Shown here one piece after another: positions 9,001 through 63,000 of a stretch of DNA of 64,000 bases. The notes under the pieces were generated by a model. The model made no database searches, was not told the origin of the DNA, and worked only from the letters and a program-made list of their open reading frames with translations. The position numbers were made by a program, and so were the translations under genes. Source of the DNA: Candidatus Omnitrophota bacterium (lineage in GTDB: Bacteria > Omnitrophota > Gorgyraeia > Gygaellales > Profunditerraquicolaceae); the NCBI GenBank assembly GCA_026387455.1, contig JAPLLR010000046.1, positions 68,921 through 132,920 on the forward strand, given 5' to 3'. Position 1 is the first letter of the stretch, and each line of letters starts with the position of its first letter.

Positions 9001-12000
9001 AGCTCTTTATCCGTTTGAACAACAGTTTTACGCCGTATCAATCCAGCTCTATCGCCGGATTGCTGCAGGATATCCATATTTACATTGATCAGGAGAGCTA
9101 TCGCTACGCGAATGTAGTGCTGCGTAAGGCAGAGAGGGTAATTGCCGATGCCGTAGGTACTCCAAAGAGAGGCATTTTAAGGAGATTCTTCGCAAGCATC
9201 AGGGGTGACACAGTCTATGACCTGCCTGTCTTTACTAGGATTGAGAACGCCAATGAGTACTATAGGCGATCAAGGGCAAATCTTGAATTTGCCGAATGCA
9301 GACTGGAGGATTCAAAAGAGGAATTGGCGGCTGCAAAAACAAAACTTGATGAGGCAGAAATTCCAGCAAATGAGGAGTTACAACGGCTCATTGAAGAAGA
9401 AGGTCCATTACATACGTTGCAAAAAAGAAGAGACCTGCGCCAGGCAGAAGAAAAGCTGGATTCCGCAAGAAAAGATCTAAGGATGGCTTCGGGTGAGGAA
9501 GAAATAAAAGCTGCGGGAGCGCAAGTGGAAGCAGCGAAAAGGAAGGTTGTCAGAGCGCGTAAAGAATTCAAAAACGCATTGAAAGAATCCCAAAAGAGAG
9601 CAAAAGAAGATTACGCTCACAGAAAGAAAGCAGCCAAGGAAATTATAAAAGCAGCCAAGGCAGGCCTTAAGAAAGTCAGAGGGGATGCTTCTGGTTGGCA
9701 AGCGGTGGCTTGCGCAAAAGAGGCGTTAGAGCATGCCCGGCAAGAGAATAAGGATTTAAAGGAAAAGAGCCCGCGTGCCCAGAAAAAAGCAAGAATAGAA
9801 AAGGCCAAGAATGCCCGTAGGCAGGCTAAGGAAGCCCTTAAAGCATACGAGTCCTGGCAGGCATATTATCAAAAAGTGGTGGCTAAGAGCAGAAAGGCAT
9901 TAGCTAGGGCTAGATTAGCTGAACGTCAGGAAAGGAAGCACGCAGAACTTAAAGCCAATAAAGAACATGCCAGCCGTCAGGAAAAAGAGCGTAAGGCCAA
10001 AGAGGCAGAGCGTAATGCCGAGCCAGCTGGAGCCGCTGGTAGAGATGGCGTGACTAGACCTGATGCGCCGTTAGATTCTCCTGTTCAGCCTTCCGCGCCT
10101 TCTTCCGCAGTTCCCAGTCCGGCAGCCGAAGCCGAGATAGAATCCGTACTTTCCCAGATATTAAAAGAATCTCTTCCGGAAGCAACTGCGCCTCCTACGT
10201 TTCTTATGGCAGAGCCAAGAGGCGATGTAGTAGATATCGCTATAAAAAATATTACCGTGCCTGAAGACAGGCAGGATGAGATAAGAAGCAGAATAATGCA
10301 GGATATTGCTGCAGGCCGTATTGTAGTGCTCCTTGATGGTCAGATTATCCCCGCCGAAGATATCCATATCAGGTTTGCCAGCATACATTTTGAGATCGCC
10401 ATCAATAAGCTTGGCAAAACCTCTTTCCGTAAAGCCAAGATATCCTATACTGATGCCTCAGGCAAACAGCAGATTTTAGGGTCAATTAAAATTGATGATG
10501 TTGCTTCATCTGTTAAACCTACCCCGATCAAAGATGCAGCCAGCGCAAAGGCAGCCAGGAAAGCCAAAGCTGATAAGGAAAGGCTGGCCAGGGAAGCGGA
10601 GGCTTTAAAGAAAGCTGAAGAAAGAAGAATAGCTAAAGAGATAGAGAAGAAATCCGTAAGAGAAGCGGCAAATAAAGCTAGGGCTCAGGCTATCTTCCTT
10701 AGGGCTCAGAGGACGCAGCAGATACGCGAGGCATTCAATAAAAAGCTGACTATTGCCAGAAGCGCATTTTCTTCTTTCAGGCGCGCCACAGCACTTCGCT
10801 GCGTTTCATTAGTCCATCTTGTAGGGGATAATCTTGCCAGTGCCAGGAAGGCTTATCAGGAAAGATCTGCCAGAGTCAGTGCCCAGAGGAGAGAGCTTGC
10901 GCGGGTAGAGATATTACTGCGGCAGATCGCTGCTGCAGAGAGGCCCGAACAGATCACTGATGAATTATTAAACAGTAAGAATGCGAAAGTTGCGGAAAGA
11001 GCCAAGGATAGAAAACAAGTTTTACTCATAGAGCGGGTTAGGCGTGCGATGAAAAATGAGCAGCCTGCCTATAGTGGAACAAGAGGTTTTTCCAGTGCAC
11101 CTCGCAGGCAGCAGGCCGAGGTTACTCCTGTTCCTGAGCCGATAGCAGAGCCGGAAAACATCAGGCTAGATGATGGTAGATTCAGTATCGGCGCCAGAGT
11201 TTGGTACGTGCCTTATTCTGGGAAAATCGAAGAGGTCGTGATATTAAATAATGATTTGGAACATGCGGATGGCTATATGATAAGAGTTGGTCTGCGCGGT
11301 TCTATGGGGCCGTTTGATCGCAACCGCTTTTTTGCCACCAGAGAAGAGGCAGAGGAATTCTTCCGCAAAGAACATTCTTATCCTGCTTGCATGATTCCTG
11401 TCGAGGCTGCTGAAGCCCTGACTGAAACAGAGTTTAATTTCATCAGGAGCTTATTCGGTGCTGCCGCCTTGGATATGCTTGCCCAGCACCGGATACACTT
11501 AGATAGGTTCAATGTCAGGGTTGACGCCACCCTCCAGGTTCCTGCTGAAGTCAGAGACGGCATACTGTATGTGCATCCCAACATCATCCGGGGACCTCCG
11601 CAGGAACTGGAAAGAATAAGAGTCCACCTTGAGGTCATCTTTGCCGGACATGAACTCTATCATCTGCTCGGCGAAAATGAATCTCAAGCCAGAAACCGCA
11701 CCATCCAGTATCTCTTTAAGGACAAGCCCGTATTTAAGAACGAGCTTTTATCCAGCCATATACGCTTCCTGAAAGGCGATAATTCTCTTGGTCTAATAGG
11801 CGATGAAGGTTGGATTTCTCGCCTGGAGGCCGCTGTTTCAGTTGTCCACGCCTCAAAGTGGAATTTGAACTCTTACAATAAGACAATAGGGCGTTACCTG
11901 CCCGGAGGAATTCCTTCCGAAGTCGCCAGGATGACAGGGGTGCCGCCAGAAACAATGATGCAGGAGCTGGTAAACGATATTTATCTTCCCTTGCGTTCAG

Positions 12001-15000
12001 CGCTTGGTTATATTGCGCAGCATATTGAGGCTGGAGATATCAGGCCCGATGTCAGGCTGCGAGTTGCAGAGAGTGATCCTGAGGCCTACGTACCCGATGA
12101 TTTGCGCACTGGTAGTCGACCTATACGCGTGGGCTTCCTGCCCATGAAAGGTGATCCCTGGCAGGTCGGCCACATCTTTGTTATCTTGGAAGCCGTAGCT
12201 AAATTAAAACTGGATAAAGTAGTGGTCATGATTGATAATTCTGATCCTATCCGTAAACCGAACTTAACCTCTTTAACCGTACGGGAAGCCATAAGTAAGG
12301 CCTTGTTCGCGCATCTGGGTTCGTTAGTGCAGTATACAGCTATAACCAAGGAGCACGAAGAGCTTTTTGCCGTCGATGGAGAGACCGCGATTTTCAAGTT
12401 TATAAGCTTAAATAATAAATTGCCTGAGAACACTTCTCTTGAAGTTTATTATATGGTTGGTTCAGATCATCGTCATTGGGAAGTTAAGAAGAAGCATCCG
12501 CAAACCGACGCAGAAATAACTTTACCTGACACCCCGCAGAAACTTATTCTTAATCAGCTTCCTGAGCCGGATGTTATGAAGCGCTGGCCGGCACTTCAGG
12601 GAAATCACTCCGGTCTCTATGGCTATCAGCAAGGCATAAGCCCCACTGTTAATATACTTTTCATAGAGCGCATCGGAGAAGAATTCAAAAAAGATCAAGG
12701 CGGCAAAGAGGTTGAGTTGGAAGCCTTGGTTGAAAGCGTAGGAAAAAATATCGGCCACATCGCCAAGATATTCCAACCTATGGATACATCATCTACCCGT
12801 GTCAGAAAACAGTATCATTACTGGACAGTTCCCTGGGATATATTCCTTTTCGCCAGGGCATTTAAACTTTGGGGATTTGAAGATTCATTTGTTCCTGGAG
12901 AAAAAGGTATTAAATGGTCAGAGCAACAGAAGGCAGTTGCCGAGGGATTATGTGGATTTATTAATTCAAATGATTTTCCTGCAATAGAAGCAAAATTGAA
13001 AGAAGCCTATGGCCCGGCAATGAATATTTTTGATATGTTCTTGATGCAAGCGATAAACCAGTCCGAGATACCGGATAATAAAGAGCGTTTTGAGAAAATA
13101 CGCGGATTAATTTTTGCCAGAGGCGAGGAGTTTGTGGGAGAGGTTGTAGGATCTGCGGATGCGCAGTTAGATGAGGCTCAGAGGGAAGTATCCCCGGACC
13201 TTAGCACCAAAGACGCTTCCCATGAAGAAGGTAGCTCGTTTTGCGCAATTGCTCTTATGCCCGCATTATTGATTGCAGCAGTGGTAATCCTGGGGATACT
13301 GGTGGTTTATTTCTCGTTCAGGCTTCGCGCGATTAAAGACAAATTAGCAAAATTAAATTCAATTTATGCTGCACAAACAAAGGAGGCAGAATGTCTACCT
13401 TACTCGAACTTGGGCAGGGACTCGAAGTCACTCATATCCTCTCCCGTCCCTACGGACTCCTCATCTATGCCAAGTACCCCTGCTGGTACTCAGAGTTCAG
13501 TTTCCTCCTCAGCCCAGACGGCACCATCAGGGGAAAGACTCATGACGGAAACTGGTATGAGATCAGCTCCGAATTCTCCGATATCATCAAGGCCAAGGTC
13601 AATAGCGTCCTTATCTACGAGCGCAACCGGTTCTACGGATAACAGCTGTCAAGGAGACCGTTCTTCAAGCGGCCTTCCGGATGAAAAAGTGGATGCCGCA
13701 ATTGAAGAATTTGGCGGAATGGAAAGTATCTGGAATCTGGGCAAAATCAACGATGCGGATTGGTTATCTGTGCAGGTTATTGGCTTAGGGATGCGCGATG
13801 CCGCACGCAACTTGGACGCCCCCAATTTCAATGCTATTGCTAGGCTCTTAACAATGCGCGGGGTGCATTTTGCACTTGCTCCTGCGAGATGGAAGATTGG
13901 TGCCTGCATAGGATTCCTCAATGACCAGCCCATCATTATTATTCCAAAAGATGTCACTTATCAGGAAGTTGCCCTTGAAATCCAGGCAACAATAGTCCCC
14001 GCATTAACCCACAAAGAAAACCTAAAAATTGACAGTTTGCAAGGTCGCCTTTATGCGCTAAGGGATAGAGATTTAGTAAAGCGCATTGAGCAGGTTAAAG
14101 AAGGCATCTTCGGTACAATCAGAGACCGTAGTTCAGGGAGCGTGGTTTCTGGTTGCTATCTCCAGCCGCAAATTGCCAATAGGGCAGGCACCCGCGCTTT
14201 TATTTATGTTAAAGAGAAAACGCTTTCTTCCATGCGGCTGGTAACGGCCGCAGAACAAAGCCGTCTATCCACAAATAAATCCTATCCGGCTATCATGCCC
14301 GTGGAAAATCTTCCGGAAAGAGAGCCTCGGCCGGAAGAGTTAAATATAATTATTTCTGCCTTTGGCGGAAGTGATGCGCTTTTGGCCAAGGGAATCAATA
14401 TGAATGTAAGGATAAATCCGGCCCTGGAGTCCCCTGCTGAAGTAAGAAATGTCGTATTACATGTTAACCCCCGCATTTTAAGAGCGCCGCCCGAGCAGTT
14501 AAGGGTTATCTTCGAAGGCCACGAATTATTCCATCTGCTTCATCCGCAGGAACCCGAATCAGCAGCCAGAAATTATACTGTCAGTTACCTCCTGAAGAAC
14601 GGTCCTGCGTCACTTCTTAGCCATATCGGATTCTTAAATTGCAATTCATTAGGCATTCAGATTAAACACTCTCAAGAGTGGTTATCTGAGCTTAGGCAGG
14701 CTTTGGGCGATAAGTTTTATCCAGCCGAAATGGTGCCATCAGCCGGCCAGATAGAGGATATTACAGAAAAAGAATTAAATACGCTCATAGATCTTTTTGG
14801 TGGACACCATACAGGAATTACCTTAACTAAAGATAATGTCAAATGCTATTCTGCGCTAGATGTTCCGGCAATAATCGTAGGTGACATTCTCTACATACAT
14901 ACCGATATCATAAGAAGCACACCGGAAACACTGAGGGCATTTGGAGGGCAATTAAATCTTATTTTCAAAGACCATATGTTTTTCTACTTGGCCTTTCCTG

Positions 15001-18000
15001 AAGAAAGTAGGCAAGATGTATGGCTGCGCACCATTAGCGCGATCTTAACCGAAGATCGCTATACCCAGCTGGAAAGTCATATACGTTTTCTATTAGTTAA
15101 CCCTCTAAATCTTGCGCCCCATAAGGAGTGGTTGGACTACTTAAGGGAAGCCTTAGTCAGATATACAAGGCAGGATGTCGAACCACGAGCCTTAACAGAA
15201 TCGCCTTTTAAGCAGTTTCTTTTAGATAAAACCAGAACTAATCTGCGAGAGCGGGTTTCAAAGGGCAACCTTAGTGAGCCCATAATTTTGTTTGAAGGAG
15301 AAAAAGATAATCCGGTTGAAGAGACATTGCGTGATGAGGTGATGTTGGTGAGAATAGGTAGGGCACTTCACCTTGAAGACGCTCTTGTAAACATTCTGCG
15401 CCCGATACTTAATATGTACGAAGGAAAGGCAGAGGTGGTGTTTACTTCCATGCCCAAACACTATGGTGCAACTGAACAGCATGCATTCAGCGCTCTCATG
15501 GAAAGAGTATCCGCGAAACTAAATATGGCGTTTATCAACGAGCAATTTTATGAAACAAGAAACCGCCCTGCTATGGGCACCTTCCCTTCGGCAGATCCTG
15601 ATGTACGCAGGGAGGCATTTATATACACAGATAAAACCGGCCAAAAGAGATGCATAGTTGAATTCGACAATTCCGGAAAGGTGGATATAAATGGAAAGGT
15701 GGTTATACTGGTTGATGATGTGCTTACCAGCGGTACCACCATGCAGGTCTCAAAGGATGTGCTGCGTAATGCCGGCGCAAGAGAGGTTATTCCCATAAGT
15801 TTGTTGAAGGCGCCTGCGTGGCATGCCTTGTGGGAAAAGAATGAAGCTAAGCGCACTATCCGTAAATACGTCTTGAAGCTTGAAGAGATACAGGATTGGA
15901 GAGGGGCAACCATGTCCTTAAAGACAATTCTAGATGAGCTAGAGGTGGAAGATGAAGTTATCTCTAGAGTTCTGGATAACCTAGCAATGAATCATGAAGA
16001 TCGGCGGCAGATTTTAAGCGGGCTGGGCACTCTTCTTTATACGGGTGATTTTCGCTTCAGCGCGAAGTATAAGCCAGTTCCTAGTTTAGCGAAAACAGTT
16101 GAGGTACAAAACCTTGATCCGGGATTGTTTTCATTTATCCATGGCATCCTGGATTTAGGAAGGTATTGCGGAACTAAAGGAGAATGGGCGCTTTTGTTCC
16201 ATACCGTAAAATACGATGAAGCTACAAAAACCTTCTTGCCTGGCAAGGAAGATATACTTACTACCCTGCAAACTATTTTAGAGAGCGATAAATTATTAAA
16301 ACCCATACTTCGTCCCCTTATTGATGTGGTAATAGATTCCAAGAACAAGCTAGAAAAGGAACATGATAAATATATGAGGTTGGCCTTGATCCTGAGTACT
16401 CTGGAAATGACAAATGAGTTAATCAAATATTTTATGGTGTTTCTCGAGGAGTATAATCCAGAGATTCAAGAAGTTGGCATATGGTCGTTAACCGAGCAGA
16501 TTGCAAGACGGTTGGATCAGATAGACGTGGATGAAAATATCAAGAAAGAAATCTTAAGGCGCCTTAGACATCTGGGTGTATGGACCGCTCCGGGTAGGTA
16601 TAGTTTTATTAGGTCACTCTTGCGCCGCCTGAACCTGGGTGTTTATATTAAGGAGGTTAACCGTATACGCAGGGAATACCAGATATACGGCTTATCCGAA
16701 TTTAGGACTTTTGAAGATGCGCAAAGACTGTTGAATAGCGTGACGCGGTTGTGGTGTACTGGCTTTAGAGCACTGCTTACAGAAAGGAAACAGCCGATTC
16801 CTGAAAAAGTAATTGCTATTATTGCTCAATGGATAGCGTGCGGGGGAGCATTTAAGATCCTTAGCTCCGGCTCGCTAGCAGGCCTGATAAGGGATGGTTA
16901 TAATAATATTGTATCGGATATTCGCTTGGAGTTAGCCAGGCAATTAGCCCAAAAGAATATTTCCCCGGATATCGATACCCCTGAAGCTTATATTGAAGAG
17001 CTGATGAGCTTTAGTATGTCCAATAGCGCAGAGAATTATACCATAAATGATGCCAGTGCAGTCGGATTGGAAGATCCTCGCCAGCTGCAGCTGAGATTAC
17101 CCTGCCCGGGTATACCGGTATCAGAAGCGGATAGAGTCCAGGCCATCTTCGAAAAACATGGGCTTAGGCTTCTGGCTAAAGATAGCCCTCAACAGATATT
17201 AGCGCAGAGTCAGAGTCCCATTGTTGTCGCGTTCTTCCTCTCGCGCGAAAAAGAATTTGAGAGCTATGCGGAATCATTGGTATTCCAAGATCTGGTAAAT
17301 GATGAGCTGCAAAAGAAAACCTGGGGTCTGTTTAGGCCGAGAAGATACGATATGCAGATAAGATGGCTTGGCGGCACCGAACAGAAGTATAATGCATATA
17401 TAATCATTGAGAATGGCCAGAACGGCGATAAAAAGAGAGAAATGATTGAGAAAATCGACGGCATAAAAGAAGAATTTATGCAGCATCTGCACGTTTTTTA
17501 CACGGGCGATAAGCCTTGGCTAGAAGAAAGAGACGGAAGCAGGGGTGACGACTACTCTGTATTTAAGTTTATGAGAGATAGGGCTGCCGAAATGGAAGCT
17601 TTTGAATCGCACAGTCCAGACCTAACCGTGAATATCATAGCCGGCATACTACATGTTATTTGCGAAGCGGAAGGATTCGATTTAAAGGCACTGCAGCCTA
17701 GCAGTGTTTTGCCGCAAGGACATCTGAATGACAAATCGCCTTCTGAAGAAGCAGCTACAGAACAAAGATTTGTTCATTACCCCAAAATATTGATAGCTGA
17801 TGATGAGTATCGTAACAGAGAGATGCTGGTTAAGCTTTTAAAGAGAAAGGGTTTTTCTGAATTTGGCACAGCAAGAGATGGGTTTGAGGCCATAGAAATC
17901 TTTCGCAAAGCTAAAGAAGAAGGAAAGCCATATGATATTGCAATTATTGATATCATGATGCCGAAAATGGACGGTATGGACCTGGCCAGACAACTAAGGG

Positions 18001-21000
18001 CTGAAAAACCAGACATCTATATCTTCGTATATAGCGCCATTTCCAACGAAGAACCACTTAGGAAATGTTTAGCAGAAGGACTATTTGATGGGATTTATAG
18101 CAAGCCAAGCTGGGATATCGTGGGTGCTTTGCATGGCGTAACTCTGCTTTTGCCTACTGTTGGCATGAGAGACAAATTTCTATCTCTCATGACGGCGAAA
18201 ATGCATAAACGTTCTATTGAAGAGATTATTTTACCCCTATCTCTTGTCCAGGAAGTATTAAATTCAGATCCAGAGCTAAAAGAAGCAGCACGCAATATCT
18301 TTGTGGCAGAGGGACCGGGGAAAATTTATTATGTCCTCAAGCCAGGTCTTGGAGGTATTCCGATATTGGAGGTGAGAGCAGGCCAAGAGGAGATGGTGGG
18401 AGGACTGATCACAAAATGCGAGCGTCTGGAAGGAGGAGCACAATCTCTGCCAGGCGTAAGCTTAGATTTTACCTTTTTTGCTTGGGCATTAGAATCTAGC
18501 TTAAGCATTGCAATATTTATTATATTAGCTTATCTAATCGCCTGCTATTATAAACAGAAGATACTGGATTCTTCTCTCACCAGCCGTGCTCCGCCATTTG
18601 TCCGGAAGACACTTAATTCCTCACTCATAGATTTACCCTCCATAAGTATGAGGAACAGTGTTTCCCTTTCCTCCCTACGAAACATCTCAAGTGAAAAACT
18701 TCAACATCTGTCCGCCGCATTGCTAATAGTAATGGGTATTGGTATGTTAATTTTCGCGGCATTTGGCCTTATAGAGCCGCTATCTTCTCTTACCGCATTC
18801 AGTTCACCTCTTCTGTTTGGTACAATTTCCCAAGGCCCTGCGCAGAAAGACGATGTAGAAATGGTGATATGGAAGGCAAAGTCTGCTGTGCAGTTAATGT
18901 CAGGGTACACCCACGATCTTAATAATTGCCTGCAACCCCTTATATTCTCAATCAGGTTTTTAGGAGAGTCCCACGGCAAAGAATCTGAGGCAGGAAACTT
19001 GATAAGGGGATTACATGAAGAGTTCGTTACCTTACGCAAAATTTTACAACCGCGTCCCATAGAAATAAATGCGGAGAATGCCGCAGATATACTAGCTCAG
19101 TGCCGCGACTTGGCAAAGAGACTATCTGCCTGGGGGAATAACCTTGATGAAAACGTTTTTATTTCCAAACTGATAAAGGTCCTACAGGTGGAAAGCCTGA
19201 ATCAAGAGCAGGAAGAGTTGATAGACCACATCAGAATTAGTATCAGGGATCTTAAGAAGCTAATACAGAATCTGGTAAGTTTTATGAGAGGTTCACCGTA
19301 TCTAGACCGGAATGAAGAGGTAGACATTAACCAGCTGCTAGAGAGGGTGACTCGGGATCTGTGTAAAGATGTAGAAATACAGTTATCTCTTGCCGAGAAT
19401 CTGCCGCATATCCGAGGCAACAGTGCTGAGTTGAAGAACGCATTTACGAACCTCATTCAAAATGGCATTGAAGCATTCCTTTATTCTGATATTCCCATTG
19501 AAAAACCGAATCTTATATGCGTTGGCACGAAGCTTTCCGCAGATCAAAAGCACCTTGAAATCGAGATAAAGGATAACGGGTCAGGGATCAGCAAAGAGGT
19601 TTTACCGCATATTTTCGAGCCCTGGCTTACTACAAAAAGCGGAAAGAGCGTAAAGGGCGGAAGGGGCGGAACTGGCATTGGGCTTACTATAGTCAAAGTA
19701 GTCGTTGAGTCTTACGGTGGTACAATTTCTGTGGATTCTTCCTACATAGGTAGCTGCCCGCAATTCCACGGAACCACCTTCACCATCCGCTTGCCGGTTA
19801 CGCAAACCCAGGTGAGAAACCCTGACTTGTTAGAAGAAAAGTCTTCTTCCGTATCAGGATTAAGCATAGGCGGATTTATATCTAAGGAAGCGTCCCCGGA
19901 CCGTAGCGCTGACAAAGACCAAGCCTCTACCCGCACCGACGAGCCGCTTGGAATGGCGGGAAGGATTATTAATTTAAGGGAGGTGGCAAAATGTCTATCT
20001 TACAGGACTTTGAAATCAGCCATGTATTACCTAAGCAGGATCACGTTATTGTGTATATCAAGCATCATTTATGGTGGAAAGAGTATTGTTTCTTGGTTTA
20101 TTCAGACGGCAGAGTCAAGGGAAAGGCCGGCAGCGGCCTGTGGCTTGACGCCAGCGAAGAGCTTAAGGCTATTCTCATCGCTAAGCTCAGGTCCCTTTAT
20201 ATTGAAAAGCGGAGTCTTATCTACCAGTAATTTGCTGGAATCTTGGCCGCTGCGGAATCAAACAGGAAATGGACTACCTTCCGTGGCTGGTGGGGTCCGT
20301 TCTCCTGCCGCAGCGGCCATAATTTTAATCTTTGTCGTAGGACTATTTCTCGCCGCGCTAGGAAATGTCGATGCCTCATTATACGCGGCGATAGGAGTTA
20401 TTGTATCCGGCCGCTCTGATAATGATAGGGCTAGCATTCTAGAGCAGGAATTACTGCGCGGCATAGAAGAGAGGACTCCCGCCCAGATCAAAAATAACAG
20501 AATGATAGATTTGACAACTACGGGAGAATTTAAGATTACACTCACACGGACGCATCTGGATGATTTTGATGAGAAGGATAACCCTGAGGGTCTGGGTTTA
20601 AGAAAATGGTTTGCCAAATACAGAAAGGAAGCGGAGATTTCTACCGCCGGTATCCGCGGTAATCAGAATATTAGCTATCCTCAGGATACCCGACCGCAAT
20701 ATCCTTTGCATCTTTTTGCTATTATGCTGGCTACTTTGGCCAAGGCAAGAGTAGCTAACAGCAAATATCCTGACAGAAGATTGCATAAGATAGCCGCTTC
20801 CGAGGTAAGGTATAACTCTCCGGCATTTGTAGAATTGATTGCCAGGATCCAGGCGCAGGAAGGCATAACCACGCATACGGTTAAAGATTATCAGACTATG
20901 CCGATATGGATGGTTTCTTTCCTGGCTTTCATGCTTGATTTTATCGGCGCTGAGTATGTGACTGCCAGCCACGCCATTGCCACTTTTATCGCTACCAAGG

Positions 21001-54000: not shown

Positions 54001-57000
54001 AGGAAGGCATCCTGAAGGAACTATTAAATGGCTTGCATTCTTTAAAAACGGGTGTTTCCGTAAAGTGCGAAATAGTAAAGTTGTTAGGTGAAATGCGTAT
54101 CTCTAACGAAAATGTTCAGCGTACCGCTTCTATGATCATTTTTGATGAGATATCTAAGGTCGAAGAATCATCGCTGCGTATCTACATCATAAGAGCGCTG
54201 GGAAATTTGTTCAACGTCGAGCCAAAGGTAGATGGCCAGATATACAGCCAGATCATGTGGCTATTAAGATATACTGCTACCACAAAGAGATGTTATTTGA
54301 CTAAGCCTTCGTTTATCCCCGGGATTATTTTTTGTGAAAAGGAGATGACCTTCAGCGATAAAGAGCAGGAAGAGGCTATCCGTCAGCTCGCCCGGATTTT
54401 TGTCAAAGGCGTGTACTCACTCGATAGGCATTTTAAGGCCGGAGGGGATATTTTCCGATATAATAATTTTGGGCGCGTTCATCAGTATTTTAGCGGGTTC
54501 TGCAATGATTTAAGCTCTATTCTGGATGGTAGGGAGAATGAATCTTATTCTTCAAATGTTTCCGTGCGGCTGGCCGCAGCGTATGCATTCGCAACTGTGG
54601 TGAGAGAGTGGAAGGAATTCCTTTTTTACTTGGGAGAGAATGGTTACGGATCATTGGTGGAGCCGTATTTTATAAATATGCACAAATTTGTCCTCAGGCG
54701 CATTCATTCTTTTGTATACGGCGACGATACCTCTCGAATTGAGAGCGATATGCGGGTTCGGCTAGTCCTGGCTGAGATTATTGCTGATGCCGGAAAGCTA
54801 GACCCCGAAGAATCAAAGAGGCTTACCAGTGATTTATCGAAATTGGCATACGATTTGGATAATGAGCCCTATGTCGCTCAGACTGTCGGGGTAATCGGTC
54901 GGATTAATAATTCCCTGGGGATGCGGTTAAGTTCTTGCCTTTTGAAAGATTCAAATCTTTGCCGGGGGCATAATTATCCCGGAGCCATGCAAGGGGAAGC
55001 GGTTTATGAAATTACCCTTGAGCAGAAGGATAATTTCCGCAGATACGTTGAAAAAGCGGGTTTCCGGTGGGAGCAGGTAGTGCTTGTGGCAACAACAGAA
55101 AGCGGCAAGGTAGCCGATACTCAAACAATTCAGAACAAGTTCGCCATTTTAAAGGCATTGGCGGCGCGCGCTCCGCCTTTTAGTGAAAACAACGTTGAAG
55201 TTTCTGCTTTTCAGGAGCTAGTCAAAGAGATTCTCACTCACGAAATTAATCGCTCACACCATGATGCCGTCCAAAATACCATCAAATCCTACCGGCAAGA
55301 TCCCTTTAAGTTTGCGCAGCTGTCTTATGCCGCCAAGTTTTGCGGAATTACATTTGACCCGGAGCTAGATGTTGAGTTCAGTGATTTGCGCTTAAAGCTT
55401 AAAGGCTACTACGATCCGCATCCGAAGGAAGAAATCGTAGTCTATGAAAATTTAAAGGAAGTAGAGCTGTATCTTACTGTAAAATTGGAAAATGGCCGGC
55501 AGCCATTGATTCCTAATAGGCAATTAGTTATGTATGTTTGGTGCAGCTATTCCGGCAATCCCGCTAGATGGTTCAATGTGCCGATGGAGATGGTGAATGA
55601 TTACGCTGACGGCAGTTATCGTTTCTTGGCGAAGATGCCCGCGTATTTTAGTGGCACTTATACCTATATATTCTCCATGGATTTTGGCTTTAGCTGGGTA
55701 TGGCTAAACCCCGGGATGCACCATAATCGCACTATTATTAATCAATTCAGCCAAGCTCTTGCCGCAGAATATGAACAGGAGGCATCGCGTTCTGCTAACG
55801 CTTATCTTAAGTCAGCACTTTCCCTCTCTGATAGTGAAGCTTTACTCGAACATGTTAACAATACCTTGGCTAATCCGCTGGAATCGATCCTGAGAAAGAC
55901 ATTTAGGGAACGGGGGTATTCAATTCTTTACTATATCGGCGGAGGTTATCATGGCTGGGTTTATCTGGCGGTTGACATCAACACCTCAAAGCTTTATGCC
56001 ATAAAAATAGCCAATCCGTATGAAATAGACTGTTCTGGATATTGCTCTTCAATGCACTCAGCTATTGAATTCTGGAAGCATAGCGGTATCTTTAGAAATG
56101 AATTCCCGGCACTGGTAAATATGGTGGAGGCAGGATTTATTGATAACCGAAGTTTACGGAAACATCTGCTGCCTTGTGATAATTTTCTTGATCAGGCATT
56201 GGGTAGTTGGGATTATCACTATCAGATTATGGAACTCGTCCACGGAGAAAACCTGGAAAACATTCTACGCGAGGGGTCTTTTCGGGGTAAGGGAGCCGCG
56301 TATTTATTGGATCCGATTGCCGATTTCTTGGAGAGGATCGAGTATTTGCATTCGAGGAAGCTGGCGCATGGCGAGTTGGTGCCTAAGAATATTATTATGG
56401 ATGATAAGTTGAGGTTTGTGGCTTGCGATCTGGATCCTTTGAGTTCATTTGGCTCATCGCACAGCGTAAAAGACTGGAGTGATAAGATTGTCGAGGTTAT
56501 CACTAAGGGGGTTAAAGATTCCCGGAACTTGTATGGTGTATTCTCACAATTATTAATTCAGGCGAGCTTAGATACTGGTGAGGAGGAAAGGGTTAAGAGT
56601 CTGCTTGGGGAGTGGGGAGAGAATAGGCTTTTATCGCAAGGGCTTCGTTCTTTTGCTCAGTCTTTGAGAGGCTTGAAACAAAGTTTATCGGGCTCACTTG
56701 GCGTTATTCATCAGGCAGCTGATCATCCGCTCAGGCCCATTGACCAGGCTCTAGCGGCGTTTAAATATCTTCGCGAACCGAAGGTTGCCGCGGGATTTTT
56801 CAGGATCGCCTGGTATACAGCGGCCGCAAATTACGAACATTTACGCGCTAACGGTGTCAGGGGACCACCTGCCTTGATTAAAGCGCTTTTCTATACAACC
56901 GCAGTAAGCGTTAAGGGCCAACCTTATTGGTATATCAATCAAAATTTCCTGCCGCGGGATATTCGTCAGTTAGTCGAGATCCACGAGAAAGACACCAAAG

Positions 57001-60000
57001 ATTGCAAAGAGGGTAATGGCGCGATAGCAGAAGCTTTACGATTACGCGAGTCGCTCTATAGGATGGGCGAGCGTGGTTATCTTAGTCGCTATTATACTCT
57101 GAAAGAATTGTTTAATCTCTCCGCGTCACTCGGTAAAGAGGGAAAGATAATCGAGGCTTTTGTTTTGTTGCAGGCGATTCTGAAAGTCGATCCTAAATAT
57201 GCTCCGGCGTACTTGAATCTCGGAACAATCTATGATTATCAGTGGTCCGATAAAGAACAGGCTATTGACAGTTGGGCGCGGGCAATGGCGCTAAGCAATG
57301 GCCAGGAACTTTTTTCTGAATTGGATAAATTACCTTCGGAATTTAAAGAAGCGGTGGTTAAGAAAGCTTTATTGTCCCGCACTGTGCCTCCAGGAGAAGG
57401 CCAGGATCCAGCGCGTAGTTCAAGTCCGCTGACTTCGGAAGAAGTAAAGCAGATAGAAGAGATTTTGCGCAAGAATTCCGCAGAAATCGCCGCTTTATCC
57501 GAAACATTTACTGATAGGACGCGAAGACTCAGCCTTACTAGGAGATTGAAAGAAGAGGAACTTTTCGTATGGGTAAAGATCCTGGAAAACGTTTTAGTGG
57601 TACGCGCGCCTCCGGGATCACGCTTGATGCAGGAACTAAGGGACTTCCAGAAGAAATACTCCCGCCAAAACGAAAAACTGAAAATAACCCTCCTCAATAC
57701 CCGTATTGGTGAGCAAGATTTAATTATTTTGATAGATTTACCGGAACAGAATAAATTTGATTTCCAGAAGGCGCTGGCGCATGAAGTCGTAGCTATCTCG
57801 CTTAGAGGCAGCGGTCTCAGCTATAAGAAAATACATCAAAGCGCTATCGAAGCCGAAAGAGTGGTCTATAAATATCTGAAGCGAGGATGGACGCCAAGTA
57901 GGATTAAGGAAGAATTGCTTAGTCGTTATAGAGATTACCTGCATTTACGAAAGATAGGAGCTTTAACTTGCAGGGATTTTAAGAGCTATTTATCTGGTAT
58001 CGGGGATGGTTTTGTGCAGACGCTGAGGATTAGGTTTGTGGAGCTGGTAGGAAAAAAGGCGGCAAGGCGGCTGGACTCTCAAGGATATCGCCACCTGGAT
58101 TATTACCTGGCTTTAGTTGGGATAAATGCTACTGATGATGCGGCAACGCAGGAGGTGGTATTCAGCGATTTACCAAATGAGACGGTAGGGGGATTTATTC
58201 AAACGGCAGATATAGACGGTTATAGGCCTGCGCAGGACGGCATGCGGCGCATAGCCAGAGAAGCTCTTGATGAGGTGCTACCAACGCTTACCCCCAGAGA
58301 ACAGCTGATGTTGAATGAGTATTATGGTTTGGAAGGTACGCGGTATTCAGTAGCTCAGATATCAATAAAGCATTGTATCCATGAGCAGAGGGCGAAACAA
58401 ATAATCAATAAAGCATTCAGAAAGTTAGCTCATTCGTCAAGGCAGGGTAAATTATTCTCTGTCATTGAAGAAGAGCTTCCGGGCTATCGTTCTTACGTGA
58501 ATTCACGCCTTTTGCGCGCGTATTTTGAAGCAGTAAGAAATTCCCGATCTGATCAAGAGGCGCAAGAAACCCGCGGTAAATCCGGAACTTTAAGCCGCAA
58601 AGACTTAAAAAGAATAGAAAAAGCCATAAGGCACGGGAGGGCAATGGTAGTTGATCTGCCTTGGGTAAATAAATATTTGGTTGATCAGCAGGAGGGAATT
58701 AATAAGATACTCACTCAGGCTAAAGATATCCGCGCCGGGCCTGTTGTGCAAAGCATTGACCGCATTCTGGTATTAAGGCACAAGGCAATAGGCATGGATA
58801 AAGATTTCGGAGCTGTAATCATTGATTTTAATGGCAAGATCACATTAGTAATTACTGAAGAAAGCCTGCCGCGTTTCCAGAATAAATCTCGGGAAGCCGC
58901 AGAAGATTTAACCCACGAAGTTGTTGAACACTCCCTTAAGGATCTTCCCAATCCCCATCAAGAAACAGAGAGGTTGATCAATTCAGCCAAAGACGCTAGC
59001 CGCAGCCGCCTATCTGCTTTCTTCAGGAAACCCAAAGTAATAGTGATCATTTCTGCTTTGGCATTTATCGCGACATTGCTTGGAGTAAAGCTGGGAATTA
59101 AGCGCCCAGCTGCTGAATTTGGTTTTCAAGATGATTTGGGCAGAAGGATACTTACATATAAGGATGCAAAGTCAGAAGAATTAAAGTTATTAGAGAAAGT
59201 ATCCGCGCAGACAATCGAAAATGAAAAATTAGACCTCATCAAGATCGCAATCGCCATGGCCGGAGCTTTCTCCGGGCAAGATGACTTGACTCTGGTGCTG
59301 GACCTTTGGAAAAGCGATAATCTGCGCATCTGTAGGGCAACAGACGAGCAGTTGATCCGGCTTTATAAATTCAGCCAGGGCTATATTCCGGAAGGTCTCG
59401 AGGGCCGCGCCCCAGCCGGATTGCATATAGAGATAGTCAGCAAAAAAGATAATTCAAAGAACTATTTGATTATCCTTAATGAAAATGTTTTAAATGATCC
59501 CGCGAGAATGCTCGCTGATTTTATCCATGAGGCCTTCGGCCACCTGCTTAACGGGATCAAGCACGGCCCGTTGCGCTTCGAGGAGGATGAGATCAGGGCA
59601 TCCCAGACGCAGCTTTTGATCTTGCAAAGTTTCTTGCGTTATAAAGAAACTATCATCAAGGCCGTAGAGAAATCTGACGTAAATAAAGAAGGAGTAGATT
59701 TTTTAAAAGATGCGCTGGATTCTAAGAAGCAGGAAAAGGCGATTGATAATGCAAAATATTGGATAAAGTATTATCAGCAGAAGATCAAGGACCGCAAAAA
59801 TGCAGATGGGGTATTTTCTAAGGCCGGATTAAGTCTGCCTGCGTTCCTTGGACTGGTGGCGCTGGGCGCGCTGGCGGCGATTATTGGTTTAGCGAGTTAT
59901 CCTGCTACCGCCGGATCTGTGGCAGAATTTGCGTTTCTGCCAGTACTTTTTAGCACAGTAATTTTCTCAAATCATGATCCTGCCTATTCTAAGAAAGATC

Positions 60001-63000
60001 TATTTGAGTATATCGCAGAAAAAGCCTTAACAATTTCTGAGCTTAAAATAGGACAAATTTACAGCTTTGGAGATCTGGCATTTGAGCTTGCCGGGATCGG
60101 TGGTACATTCACTGCCTATAAATGTCTGAGCGGGGACAGGTCTTATGCGGTATTGGTTTCTAACCCGGGCCAGGACCCCAAAGTTTTTAAGTCCCAAACG
60201 CAATTATACCAAGCCATCAACCCCCATGGTAGAGTGCCATATCTTCCGTGTTTGTATTTTGAAAAGAGGCTTCAAGATAGTGTTGTCTTAATAATGTCCT
60301 GGTTCCCCAAAGGCTTCCCGATGTCACAAACAGTTTTTTCTGGATGGAGTGATCTTCAGAAAGCCCGGCTTGCCTTGGTTATCGCCGGCGCAATGCGATA
60401 CCTGTATGATTGCGAAGTCCTCCATCGCGACCTTACTCCTAATAATATTTGGATCCCAGATGCGCTGAGCAAGGAACCAGACAGCATCCAGGCAAATCCG
60501 CCTATTATCTTTGATTTTGCTTATGCGGACTTTTTAGGCGTTGAGTCGGCAATCGAAGTATTTACACCGGGTTACTCATACTTATTGCCGGCTTCGGAAG
60601 GTGACCCTTTCAACGCTGACGTGCGCAAAGATTTATTTGGTTATGGCGCTGTGCTAGCATATATTTTCGGAGATACGAGGTTAAAGAATGGCAAAAATTT
60701 CAAAGATGAAATGCTTAAAGCGTTGGGCTGCGAACATCATATTCGTCCGCGCAGGATAGTGATCGATGGAAGGCATGGATGCTGGCTTAGGAATAAATAC
60801 GAAAAAATCGCTTTGGGAGCAGTAGTCAGGCAGCATCGCGTAAACGGGATAATAAGAAATTCCGGTATTTCTAATCCTGTCAAAAGATTACTCTTGGGGC
60901 TATTAAGGATTGAGCCTTCAGAAATAAATTTTGGATGGGAAAAGATCATTTGCAATCTAAAAGAAATCATGCGCAAAGTTCACGTTTTTTCCCGCCAAGA
61001 TCTGATCGTTCTCCTTGGGCTGGTGGCGTTTAGCACGCTGGCAGCTATTATCGGTGTTAGCACAGGTTCTTTCATTGCCGCGCCTTTTTTACTTGGGGCG
61101 GTCCGGCCAGATTACCCTTCAGCATCAAATATATTCGGCTTAAGACAGGGTTTGGTTGTCATAAAACAGCGTATTCAAGAGGAGCTGGCAAAGGGCCGCG
61201 ATAGGCCGGTGATTATTCTGATTAAGGGTAAGTCCGGAAGCGGCAAGACCCTAATAAGAAATACGCTACTTGATTGGCTGAAATCAAGCGGGATGGACAA
61301 AAAAGCTGCCTTTAGGGAACAAAAAAGAACTCCCCCGAAATTATGGGCAAAGATGACGTTCGCTGGCTTATGCCAGGAGTACCGTTCTCTAGATGTTCTT
61401 CTGGTGGAAGGGGTCAACAATATACCGCAGGATAACGATTCTCTTGACGTATTTGCCGAAGTGATAGTTACGGATAATAAAGTAAGGAGGGGCCGGCTTA
61501 AGAATAGGGCGCGCGACCGTTTCCCTGGACGGTGGCAGATAATACAACGTTTAATGCATGTGAATAAATATATGTCCGTGAAAGAAACCAATGGCCCGCG
61601 CAATCCTGATATCATCATCGATACCACTGAGTCTTATAATCATTCATACATGTATCCGATAATGTTTATACTTTTAGGTTTCTTTGGATTTTTCGCGTTC
61701 GCTCTTTCTGGCTTCGGAACGAGCATGCTAGCTACCGCCGGGCCGGTTGTGCTTGTATTCGGCTTGCCATGTTTGCTTGCCACAGTAACACACTTCAGTG
61801 AAAACAGCCCGCCCACCGATGTCAACAAAGAAGAGAGTTTACAAAGGGGGGCTTTTAAGGCTATCCGCCTTGCAATAATTAAGGAGAGGGCGCAGAAAGT
61901 AAATCAGGCTCTGGTTAGGCCGCCTAGTGAATCCGAGACGCTGCTATTGATAGAGGCTAAGGCAGAATATGTGGAAGCTAATTTCAATAAGCTTCAGTGG
62001 GAAGATCCTTATGTGTTTATTGCAAAGTGTGAAGACATGCTCACTAAATTGCGTAAAAAAGCTAAAGAGGAATTGTGGAAGAATAGGCCTGAAGTAAACG
62101 AGGCTTTCCAGAGCTTGGTGCAGCGTATTTTATTTTTCATCAGAGAGACCCGGGCAAATATTAAACTGCTCGCCGAGCAGGATAAGGATGACCTTGTTTA
62201 TTCTGACACGGAAGATTCTATTGATGGGAATGTTAGTGAAGACAAAGATGGCGTTGAGGATGATGAATCTGATGAGGATTCTGCCGATGATCCCGGATTA
62301 GGGCATATCGTGCCAATGATTGCTTTTATTTTGGGTGCTTGCTTACTGGGCGCGCTGGCGGCGTTGGCTTCGCACGGCCTGCCATTTCTTCTTGGCGCCT
62401 GTGCGCTGGGGACGGAGGTTTCTGTGAAGGGGGATAATGCAGAAGAAACAGGAGATGTTTCCCGGATGTTTGCTCAAAAGAAGGCAGGGCTTGAGAGAAT
62501 CCGCAGAGCCGATATCCGCGAAAAAGTAAAAGGTATCCTTGACCATATAGAGAATGAAGTGAATAAGATAAAACCAGAGGATGGGCGGGAGTTTATCATT
62601 AATGGCCTAAGCCTTTTATTCAGGCAGGATATCAATATATTTGCTAAAGTTTTGCTCATCGAAGGATTTCATATAGAGGAATACATTAAGAATCACAAAG
62701 AAAGCGGCAATAGCCCGCAATGTTCGGTAGGGATGCTCGATGATTTAATTCAGGATGCGTTGCCTATGGCTAAAGCCGCATTTTATCTTACTAAATTTTC
62801 TGTGGTAGTAGTGCTTGAGGATACGCTGTCGCCATTTGCAAATACCAATGGATTAAAGCGCCTTTTGCTTCAGGCAGAATCGTTGATAATAGAGAGTGGT
62901 TGGCTTAAAACTCACTCCGAATTATTGACTAAAGTTAATGTTATTTACTTAATGAAAACTAGTGACGATGGACAGGATACGGCGGCAGATGTTGCGGGTT

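Follow-up and report, generated by a model that had tools for sequence, protein, structure and literature searches.

Open reading frames (ORFs) that exceed 20 kb have been reported in most Velamenicoccia genomes (Seymour et al. 2023, PMC10066038), and the giant protein of Velamenicoccus archaeovorus LiM, which is 39,678 amino acids (aa) long with 42 transmembrane (TM) segments, contributes peptides that are approximately three-fold more abundant in attached cells (cited in PMC10066038). West-Roberts et al. (2023, 10.1101/2023.11.21.568195) described 46 Omnitrophota genes of more than 90 kb that encode proteins of more than 30,000 aa, and Nielsen & Lui (2026, 10.64898/2026.06.07.730766) assembled a catalogue, confined to Omnitrophota, of 916 long proteins. 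Here, we analyse a stretch of 64,000 nucleotides (nt) from a Candidatus Omnitrophota bacterium (contig JAPLLR010000046.1, positions 68,921 to 132,920), hereafter the window, which lies wholly inside a single genuine giant gene encoding at least 21,332 aa.

Two published classes of giant are among the closest described systems. The 'Archaeovorins', of which the V. archaeovorus protein is the type, were defined by the glycosyltransferase (GT) families GT5 and GT1, phosphoglucomutase/phosphomannomutase (PGM/PMM), HATPase_c, radical SAM, PPDK and other domains together with many TM helices; their consistent content is given as GT5/GT1 glycosyltransferases, methyltransferases, glycoside hydrolases, peptidases, NUDIX and HEAT, and a divergent SecA DEAD/preprotein-binding domain occurs in most full-length members (10.1101/2023.11.21.568195). 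The 'multi-enzyme metabolic cluster' class comprises proteins no shorter than 10,000 aa that combine many distinct Pfam families, none of which dominates by copy number. The Pfam modules 1 and 2 of the same catalogue are centred on PF08323, PF02878-80, PF00072 and PF02518, and its most TM-dense giant has 331 helices in 122,534 aa, or approximately one per 370 aa (10.64898/2026.06.07.730766).

The window resembles the Archaeovorins in being a single ORF of tens of thousands of codons with numerous TM helices, in carrying GT5 glycogen-synthase-like, PGM/PMM and HATPase_c domains that diverge strongly from their families, and in having an N-terminal region without identifiable domains. In addition, Omnitrophota relatives of a conserved module near the start of the window (the 'head' module, described below) bear the PEP-utilizer, HEAT, TPR and radical SAM tails typical of Archaeovorins. 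As in the multi-enzyme metabolic cluster, many distinct Pfam families tile the chain and none dominates (approximately 17 distinct families, the most repeated being Pkinase with four copies), and the length of the frame lies above the lower limit of that class. All six of the module-1/2 families are present, HIT-type and kinase/phosphotransferase content is shared, and so is uniqueness at the sequence level; the density of hydrophobic segments, approximately one per 344 aa, is close to that of the most TM-dense published giant. The Archaeovorin set was drawn from genes above 90,000 bp and proteins above 30,000 aa; the window shows at least 63,996 nt and 21,332 aa of a frame that runs on past both of its ends. 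The window differs from the Archaeovorins in that it contains, beyond the content listed as typical in the text consulted, a glutamate dehydrogenase, a phosphoribosyltransferase, four domains of the Pkinase type, a phosphatase of the PPP type and a sigma-like helix-turn-helix. The accessible text of Nielsen & Lui holds no description of a head module in common with Verrucomicrobiota proteins of about 4.3 kaa (thousand amino acids).

We consider it very probable that the window belongs to a genuine giant gene of the kind described in Omnitrophota and other bacteria of the Planctomycetota-Verrucomicrobiota-Chlamydiota (PVC) group, whether of the Archaeovorin type or a multi-enzyme metabolic cluster. 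An earlier, sequence-only reading of the window had called the fusion unprecedented and its architecture that of no known family, while suggesting a comparison with Omnitrophota giants. That comparison places the window among known giant genes, and the same design, built from the same Pfam families, has already been published for them.

One uninterrupted frame across the window

Frame +3 of the window, whose first codon is at nt 3, contains no stop in 21,332 codons and spans the entire 64,000 nt, whereas a six-frame count found 1,345, 1,740, 723, 1,403 and 830 stops in the remaining five frames. Because frame +3 is free of stops through both window edges, the gene continues beyond both ends; amino acid i of the translation corresponds to nt 3i to 3i+2. 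The sequence-only reading had assigned everything to one frame and had named an interruption of that frame as one observation that would overturn it. No stop was found, and the claim turns out to have been understated. The limits that it gave, 11380-61620, enclose the motifs that can be recognised, with the first HExxH domain at one end and the Walker A motif at the other, but not the gene.

The coding signature is even in all 21 three-kb blocks, with GC content at the first codon position (GC1) exceeding that at the second (GC2) and G making up approximately 0.29-0.39 of first positions, and the amino-acid composition of the 21,332-aa translation is ordinary. The window contains no tandem repeats and no matches to Rfam families. 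A listing of ORFs of at least 150 aa returned only four, all antisense and 150-186 aa long; such a listing omits ORFs that run off the window, and hence misses the giant frame. None of the four antisense ORFs has a family match, and we regard them as spurious shadows of the coding frame rather than as genes. As a separate observation, GC skew is above zero in every 2-kb block of window positions 1-64000, so that the cumulative skew climbs monotonically and the coding strand is G-rich along the whole window.

Domain inventory of the enzyme and signalling tail

The translation was scanned in tiles with Pfam and NCBIfam profiles, to which motif checks were added (Table 1). Approximately 19 profile-supported domains from unrelated families were recovered in the single frame, most of them with intact catalytic motifs, so that the fusion in cis of unrelated enzyme and signalling families in one polypeptide, as the sequence-only reading had proposed, is borne out by profile search. 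Most of the families that it had named were recovered, namely the phosphoribosyltransferase, response-regulator receiver (REC), histidine kinase, PGM/PMM, GT2, GT-B, GalT/HIT-like DUF4922, PPP phosphatase, glutamate dehydrogenase and NagB/6-phosphogluconolactonase (6PGL) domains. A GT9-like domain had no match at E <= 0.1, and the proposed nucleotidyltransferase corresponds only to a weak, sub-threshold NadD-like stretch. Instead of at least six kinase-like domains there are five, one RIO/Bud32-like and four Pkinase, of which two lack a recognisable catalytic loop. For the P-loops and HExxH motifs, one canonical Walker A motif and three HExxH motifs were recovered.

Table 1. Features of the giant gene within the 64,000-nt window
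Feature	Position (nt)	Strand	Evidence
Single open reading frame	3..63998	+	At least 21,332 aa (at least 63,996 nt), open at both window ends
N-terminal region (aa 1-1517), predicted extracytoplasmic	3..4553	+	Location from charge asymmetry of the following TM segment
Conserved head module (aa ~1510-3056, ~1,540 aa)	4530..9170	+	159 relatives, top score 603 bits
Single TM anchor (aa 1518-1542), predicted N-out/C-in	4554..4628	+	Hydrophobicity 2.89; starts the block conserved in relatives
HExxH-bearing ~150-aa domain, copy 1 (aa 3792-3945)	11376..11837	+	Self-BLAST, 33-44% identity; HELYH/HELFH
NadD-like nucleotidyltransferase stretch, weak, below threshold	12117..12359	+	TIGR00482, E = 3.3e-4, 20.8 bits against a cut-off of 112
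Intragenic duplicate A (aa 4545-4713)	13635..14141	+	Partner B at 22698..23198 (aa 7566-7732)
HExxH domain, copy 2	14280..14705	+	Self-BLAST
HExxH domain, copy 3, HExxH lost	14754..15155	+	Self-BLAST
Phosphoribosyltransferase	15516..15908	+	PF00156 Pribosyltran, 45.8 bits; phosphoribosyl pyrophosphate (PRPP) loop intact, ILVDDVLTSGTT
Response-regulator receiver (REC)	17787..18095	+	PF00072, 69.1 bits; DD, phospho-acceptor Asp, S/T and K-P all there
TM helix pair (aa 6165-6183, 6233-6257) upstream of kinase core, placed as in sensor histidine kinases	18495..18773	+	Hydropathy
Histidine-kinase core, HATPase_c with N-box, G1 (DNGSG) and G2 (GTGIG)	19161..19814	+	NF008468 AtoS-type, 107.8 bits; PF02518, 75.2 bits
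PGM/PMM domains I-III	20802..22151	+	PF02878, PF02879, PF02880; Arch_GlmM 38.8 bits; TASH (phosphoserine), DPDGDR (metal)
GT2 glycosyltransferase, modest score	23853..24185	+	PF00535, 25.6 bits against a cut-off of 23.3
RIO/Bud32-like small kinase	25653..25952	+	PF01163 (RIO1), 24.4 bits; Bud32 models; HGDLxxxN
Protein-kinase-like domain 1	26550..27440	+	PF00069, 44.1 bits; Bud32/PknB models; HRD..N and DFG
DUF4922, GalT/HIT-like nucleotidyl-transferase fold	27858..28208	+	PF16269, 55.6 bits; HFHFQ (GalT-type HxHxQ)
Glycogen/starch-synthase-like GT-B (GT5 N-half and glgA-like C-half)	30711..32186	+	PF08323, 33.4 bits; TIGR02095 C-terminal part, 33.2 bits
Series of long uncharged anchors, 33-56 residues, candidate helical hairpins (aa 12569-12603, 14920-14962, 15185-15230, 15440-15482, 16306-16349, 16689-16721, 17213-17252, 19941-19974, 20334-20367, 20544-20599, 20764-20804, 21187-21225)	37707..63677 (span)	+	Hydropathy
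Calcineurin-like/PPP-type metallophosphoesterase	38859..39293	+	PF00149, 44.5 bits; GDVH, GDMVDKG, GNHE
Glu/Leu/Phe/Val dehydrogenase	40173..41549	+	PF02812, 79.3 bits (18-126/129); PF00208, 197 bits (1-237/241)
Protein-kinase-like domain 2	43338..44249	+	PF00069, 31.1 bits, just below the 31.7 cut-off
Glucosamine-6-P deaminase/6-phosphogluconolactonase-like	47229..47966	+	PF01182, 39.2 bits; TIGR00502 nagB, 65.3 bits
PAS sensor domain	48045..48359	+	PF13426, 29.1 bits; TIGR00229, 28.1 bits
Protein-kinase-like domain 3	55842..56738	+	PF00069, 35.3 bits
Sigma-70 region 3/4-like helix-turn-helix	58182..58460	+	TIGR02393 RpoD_Cterm, 37.9 bits; PF04545, 23.3 bits
Protein-kinase-like domain 4	60000..60899	+	PF00069, 29.9 bits, just below cut-off; HRD..N and DFA
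P-loop NTPase-like stretch, sole canonical Walker A (GKSGSGKT)	61161..61334	+	Weak AAA_22/STAND, E ~0.01

Several of the domains are legible down to individual residues. The glutamate dehydrogenase combines both of its Pfam domains at near full length with GGGKG at aa 13435, an instance of the GG(G/S)K catalytic-lysine motif, as expected of the ELFV family. The REC-kinase segment has the composition of a two-component hybrid sensor kinase, with the receiver Asp, a His region and the HATPase_c N, G1 and G2 boxes, and its His box is atypical (IDHIRISIRDL), with HisKA scoring just 19 bits. The central PGM domain (PF02879, 25.6 bits) is under its cut-off of 29.3, yet is flanked by domains I and III. 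DUF4922 has a weak match in the Protein Data Bank (PDB) to a HIT protein (E = 0.012); a PDB sequence search with the GT-B region gave nothing useful. Overall, the tail is rich in enzymes that act on sugar phosphates, nucleotide sugars and glycans and in two-component and Ser/Thr-kinase signalling, in keeping with the envelope signalling and glycan pathway of the sequence-only reading. The Pfam and NCBIfam scans detected no glycoside hydrolase, lytic transglycosylase, peptidase, dockerin or adhesin family in the window.

Kinase-like domains 2 and 3 are paralogues with 30% identity that match the N-terminal half of the Pkinase profile only, and no HxD...N catalytic loop was found in either; from their sequences, they may be pseudokinases. 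The sigma-like helix-turn-helix sits between kinase-like domains 3 and 4 in a membrane-anchored chain, an odd location for a tethered sigma fragment. The HExxH domain, present in three copies soon after the head, one of which has lost the motif, matched no Pfam or PDB entry and no peptidase family, and could be either a zincin-like protease or a non-catalytic module.

Two further segments, A and B, approximately 169 aa long and without family assignment, lie approximately 9 kb apart in the same frame. Their identity, 74% at the amino-acid level and 79% over 484 nt, makes them much closer to each other than any other internal repeat, and this high identity suggests that a duplication or gene conversion took place within the gene fairly recently.

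A conserved head module and its relatives

The head lies upstream of the region considered in the sequence-only reading. Local BLAST delimits it as a conserved block at window aa ~1510-3056, with 30-40% identity to Verrucomicrobiota proteins, and its order is a single TM segment, a linker, TM cluster 1 (aa 1857-2160), a soluble loop (aa ~2161-2632) and TM cluster 2 (aa 2633-2964). An exhaustive HMMER search with aa 1850-3000 as the query found 159 relatives, 95 of them below 1e-30 and the best 37% identical overall, in metagenome-assembled genomes (MAGs) of Verrucomicrobiota, Omnitrophota and Planctomycetota. Those that carry a name are proteins from Candidatus Omnitrophota MAGs, 5,665-7,464 aa long and in two cases partial and filling their contigs, and a Verrucomicrobiales MAG protein of 4,289 aa. 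The Verrucomicrobiota proteins of approximately 4,200-4,600 aa (for example MBL9174736.1, from a Verrucomicrobiales MAG) share with the window a long N-terminal region, the single TM segment, and 10 TM segments, a loop with the same invariant motifs and 10 further TM segments. Two full-length members have no Pfam domain, and in many relatives of this size the block runs to within approximately 10 residues of the C-terminus, equivalent to window aa ~3050, whereas the window frame runs on for more than 18,000 further residues of enzyme domains.

Alignment A2, a trimmed core alignment of 10 sequences, shows six invariant motifs in the loop: PGRGTTNT, EEGHR, GTGWGN, GISEDIWAV (ISEDxW), WHKxRE and PRWSGG. 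Sequence and profile searches with the head and its profile matched nothing in Pfam, NCBIfam or the PDB, a Pfam scan of two full-length Verrucomicrobiota relatives found no domain, and a single-sequence AlphaFold2 model of the soluble loop was unusable (mean pLDDT 30.7). Like the head, processive glycan synthases (the GT2 cellulose, chitin and hyaluronan synthases, and the GT48 enzyme FKS1) have a cytoplasmic loop between TM bundles. The motif GISEDIW prompted a comparison with FKS1, whose 'NEDIYAG' resembles the 'ISEDIW' of the head. Aligned by hhalign with FKS1 residues 1150-1311 (taken from the PDB), however, the head gave a probability of 0.3% over 13 columns; FKS1 was not retrieved from the PDB by sequence or profile, PF02364 did not match, and a GT48 FKS-type assignment was rejected at the sequence level. 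The invariant SED of the head, followed approximately 46 residues on by an invariant RW, recalls the TED...QxxRW order of GT2 synthases, a lead only, with membership of that family not established. In some relatives (L041 at 8450-11317, L039 at 7004-10417, P0129 and P0157) the soluble loop follows TM cluster 2 instead of lying between the clusters, a rearrangement of the head that resembles a circular permutation.

Scans of genomic and metagenomic DNA were made with alignment A2, since a scan with a single sequence gave no confirmed relative and a 25-sequence alignment was too loose. They yielded 41 genome loci and 38 metagenome loci, and all 79 were confirmed by tblastn. At Verrucomicrobiota loci the frame ends 460-490 aa past the core. 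At most Omnitrophota loci, three loci binned as Planctomycetales and a few others, it stays open for at least 3,300 aa past the core, to the end of the fetched DNA, which is the same open-ended state as in the window. The tails of these loci are varied: PEP-utilising domains, HPr, TPR and HEAT in L024, L030 and L039; HEAT, DUF218, radical SAM and epimerase in L041; transketolase in L067; and Maf, GNAT, an ARMT1-like phosphatase and DUF218 in L075. The HExxH domain of the window also recurs downstream of the head in P0129, P0152 and L041.

Over the whole length of the head, L001 gives the best match. There, the TAA of the head gene overlaps the ATG (TAATG) of a separate gene of 2,720 aa that encodes DUF218, radical SAM and epimerase domains and has a match to the DUF4922 region of the window. 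In L041, the DUF218, radical SAM and epimerase domains stand in the same order as in L001 but continue the open frame of the head, to which they are fused. The split state of L001 and the fused state of L041 imply that both fusion and fission occur in the head family. In a neighbour-joining tree of the head core, the window groups with L001, L002 and two Omnitrophota loci, outside a tight Verrucomicrobiota cluster.

Two side observations concern these loci. In L001 (12121-12174), 25 masked N immediately precede the TAATG overlap and make that stretch unreadable. Directly upstream of DUF4922 in the window, an unannotated segment at nt 27369-27836 (aa 9123-9278) has 52% identity to L075 (15260-15622), another open-ended giant frame, and 39% to P0202, and is thus a conserved domain of no family that is common to otherwise non-colinear tails.

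Word-indexed searches with the head alone and with its profile returned nothing, and such a search with the REC-histidine kinase-PGM stretch returned generic hybrid histidine kinases only, with no giant relative. The DNA of the window itself has no exact match in the metagenome collection.

Membrane segments and topology

Kyte-Doolittle hydropathy of the whole translation gave 62 hydrophobic segments, and a stricter scan gave 37 uncharged runs of at least 17 residues, so that the membrane-threaded character proposed in the sequence-only reading holds. Two clusters of approximately 10 segments each form the TM part of the head. The single anchor that precedes them has no K or R in the 15 residues before it and six in the 15 residues after it, an asymmetry that, by the positive-inside rule, would place the upstream ~1,500 aa outside and the downstream part inside. 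The predicted outer region (aa 1-1517) has no Pfam or NCBIfam match. Within it, repeats of approximately 80 aa at nt 1041-2105 (aa 347-701), with the motif W..I.YD..G.E..R.T....G, are reminiscent of YD/Rhs repeats and likewise have no Pfam match.

Along the tail, at least one hydrophobic anchor is present at 11 of the 18 junctions between adjacent profile-supported domains, which makes the earlier description of most domains as separated by hydrophobic hairpins roughly right. Many of the 33-56-residue anchors bear K or R on both flanks, and several have the common pattern LLGLxAF..LAA..G...P..LGA. In approximately the last five (nt 59823-63677), LLGLxAF..LAA..G is followed by a polar or Pro break and then LGA, a pattern that suggests a repeated anchor cassette rather than independent TM helices.

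Proposed architecture and alternative explanations

Our data are consistent with a model in which the protein would act as an inner-membrane scaffold. The region upstream of the single anchor would be outward-facing and repeat-rich and could serve in contact or adhesion, and the head, with its order of 10 TM segments, loop and 10 TM segments, is a predicted membrane enzyme or transporter. The tail of ~18,000 aa would be kept on the cytoplasmic face, pinned at intervals by hairpins that leave its sidedness unchanged. There, its enzymes (PGM/PMM, NagB/6PGL-like, GalT/HIT-like DUF4922, GT2, glycogen-synthase-like GT-B, phosphoribosyltransferase and glutamate dehydrogenase) would lie beside its own regulators (REC, histidine kinase, PAS, Ser/Thr-kinase-like domains, PPP-type phosphatase and sigma-like helix-turn-helix). 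The outcome would be a membrane-tethered, self-regulated enzyme array at the cell envelope, probably engaged in glycan or envelope metabolism, and the gene may have grown by fusion of downstream enzyme genes onto the head gene.

The cytoplasmic placement of the tail is argued from what its domains need. Kinases, histidine kinases and P-loop proteins use ATP, glutamate dehydrogenase uses NAD(P), phosphoribosyltransferases use PRPP and glycosyltransferases use nucleoside diphosphate (NDP)-sugars, and a sigma-like helix-turn-helix binds DNA or RNA polymerase; phosphotransfer between histidine kinase and REC is a further such requirement. The hairpin-like form of many anchors argues in the same direction. 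A cytoplasmic-face architecture has also been the interpretation of the published 'TM-only' class of giants (10.64898/2026.06.07.730766). The membrane-anchored topologies of that catalogue are TM-only and SP+TM, the latter with a signal peptide, and the window shows TM segments. We offer the cytoplasmic-face array tentatively, at slightly less than even chances, whereas the statement as a whole, that this is a giant gene of known kind together with the inner-membrane scaffold mechanism, seems to us moderately probable.

Several points weigh against this interpretation. The gene is known here from sequence alone, and its N-terminus, including any signal peptide, lies beyond the window; giants that bear signal peptides have been read as holding metabolic domains on the outer face (10.64898/2026.06.07.730766), and TMHMM put most Archaeovorin domains outside (10.1101/2023.11.21.568195). 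The topology is based on hydropathy and flanking charge and not on a dedicated TM predictor, and the segments of 29-35 residues may each cross the membrane once as one TM helix, in which case the sidedness would change and the phosphoesterase, possibly with other domains, would face outward. One single hydrophobic segment lies on either side of the phosphoesterase (aa 12865-12894 and 13277-13295), which may thus be exposed on the outer face, and a 29-residue segment at aa 15064-15092 makes the parity uncertain between kinase-like domain 2 and the NagB-like domain. Recognised domains cover approximately one-fifth of the residues, the remainder being without family assignment, and approximately 70% of the residues carry no annotation. 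Beyond isolated domains the tail is not colinear with the tails of the relatives, so that function is not transferable from those giants, and in the tree of the head core the window falls in a mixed group and not inside the Omnitrophota or Verrucomicrobiota clusters. Lastly, the profile scans of the window found no HEAT, methyltransferase, NUDIX, glycoside hydrolase or C39/S8 peptidase domain, nor a SecA_DEAD domain in any of the tiles (thresholds of E <= 0.01 to 0.1), although SecA_DEAD could be encoded elsewhere in the gene. With these Archaeovorin hallmarks not found in the fragment, both ends of the gene beyond the window and no phylum clade for the window in the head-core tree, the window is filed under the broader known kind and not strictly under the Archaeovorin type.

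The alternatives concern both the reality of the gene and its novelty. Misassembly or chimerism, or a frame that is not a translated gene, could be suspected from the fact that the ends of the gene, its promoter and its neighbours all lie outside the window, and the duplicates A and B are a type of repeat able to mislead assemblers. Yet 21,332 sense codons in a row are neither attainable by chance nor kept without selection when the other frames hold 723-1,740 stops, the codon-position composition is even along the window, dozens of significant domain matches share the single frame with their catalytic residues kept, and independent assemblies of relatives carry the same open-ended frames; we regard an artefact as extremely improbable. 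It is very improbable, too, that the architecture is truly without a known counterpart. The low identity of the best head match, the absence of the DNA of the window from the metagenome collection, the failure of word-indexed searches to reach a giant relative and the lack of a colinear tail all show that no close relative is at hand. However, the published catalogues hold the same design, in which one frame encodes tens of thousands of residues with many TM segments and with sugar-metabolic and signalling enzymes, and 80% of long-protein sequence clusters are singletons (10.64898/2026.06.07.730766), so that uniqueness at the sequence level is normal for such proteins; furthermore, the head is homologous to that of Omnitrophota giants.

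Other explanations accept the gene and differ on what the protein does. As an extracellular predatory effector, it would display most of its enzyme domains outside, attach to prey or host and degrade or remodel envelope polymers, in line with the TMHMM placement and the proposal of cell-wall degradation by West-Roberts et al. (10.1101/2023.11.21.568195), with the greater abundance of the V. archaeovorus protein in attached cells (PMC10066038), with the predicted outside location of the N-terminal ~1,500 aa and with the phosphoesterase between two single hydrophobic segments. The same authors call some of the predicted localisations highly unlikely (10.1101/2023.11.21.568195). The domains of the window need cytoplasmic cofactors and partners, no lytic, peptidase or adhesin family was detected in it, and the hairpin-like form of many anchors would leave their two flanks on the same side, all of which makes the predatory role quite improbable for this protein. 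The 'giant surface or attachment machine' of the sequence-only reading is possible for the N-terminal ~1,500 aa only, the enzyme tail being more likely on the cytoplasmic face. In a polyprotein, by contrast, the chain or long pieces of it would be cut into separate membrane-anchored enzymes, perhaps by the HExxH domains or by other proteases, and the fusion would be a route to co-expression and co-insertion with no persistent machine of 21,000 aa. The position of the HExxH copies, in a place where the domain recurs in relatives, would suit such processing, and cleavage by C39/S8 peptidase domains has been raised for Archaeovorins (10.1101/2023.11.21.568195). In L001, moreover, a pair of distinct but translationally coupled genes makes up the equivalent region, and its parts can therefore function on their own. 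Against processing, the HExxH domain matches no peptidase family or solved structure and one copy is without the motif, and neither recognisable cleavage sites nor any peptidase family could be found in the window. We judge a polyprotein improbable; it is compatible with the scaffold reading and does not exclude it.

A more speculative reading, which we think unlikely but worth stating, would make the head a previously unrecognised, PVC-wide family of polytopic membrane enzymes, perhaps a processive glycan synthase and exporter. The giants would then be a 'fossilised operon', formed by serial loss of stop codons between the head gene and translationally coupled enzyme genes whose products are tethered to feed and regulate the head, with the split L001, the fused L041 and the lineage-specific tails as snapshots of the process.

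Implications for giant bacterial genes

Few objects in microbial genomes are understood as poorly as giant bacterial genes, and behind them stand the general questions of how ribosomes and the machinery of membrane insertion cope with a chain longer than 20,000 residues and what role such a protein has. The fusion design was already known; what our work adds is the conserved head and its split and fused relatives. The window provides a further, sequence-unique example, the tail of which is particularly legible: intact-looking enzymes that depend on cytoplasmic cofactors lie beside a two-component pair, kinases and a phosphatase, which argues for a self-regulated array on the cytoplasmic face and against an exported lytic weapon. 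The head, held in common with Verrucomicrobiota proteins of ordinary size, gives together with the split and fused states of its relatives a comparative handle on how giant genes are built and on what their functional core may be, and the comparison of these states suggests how such genes may grow.

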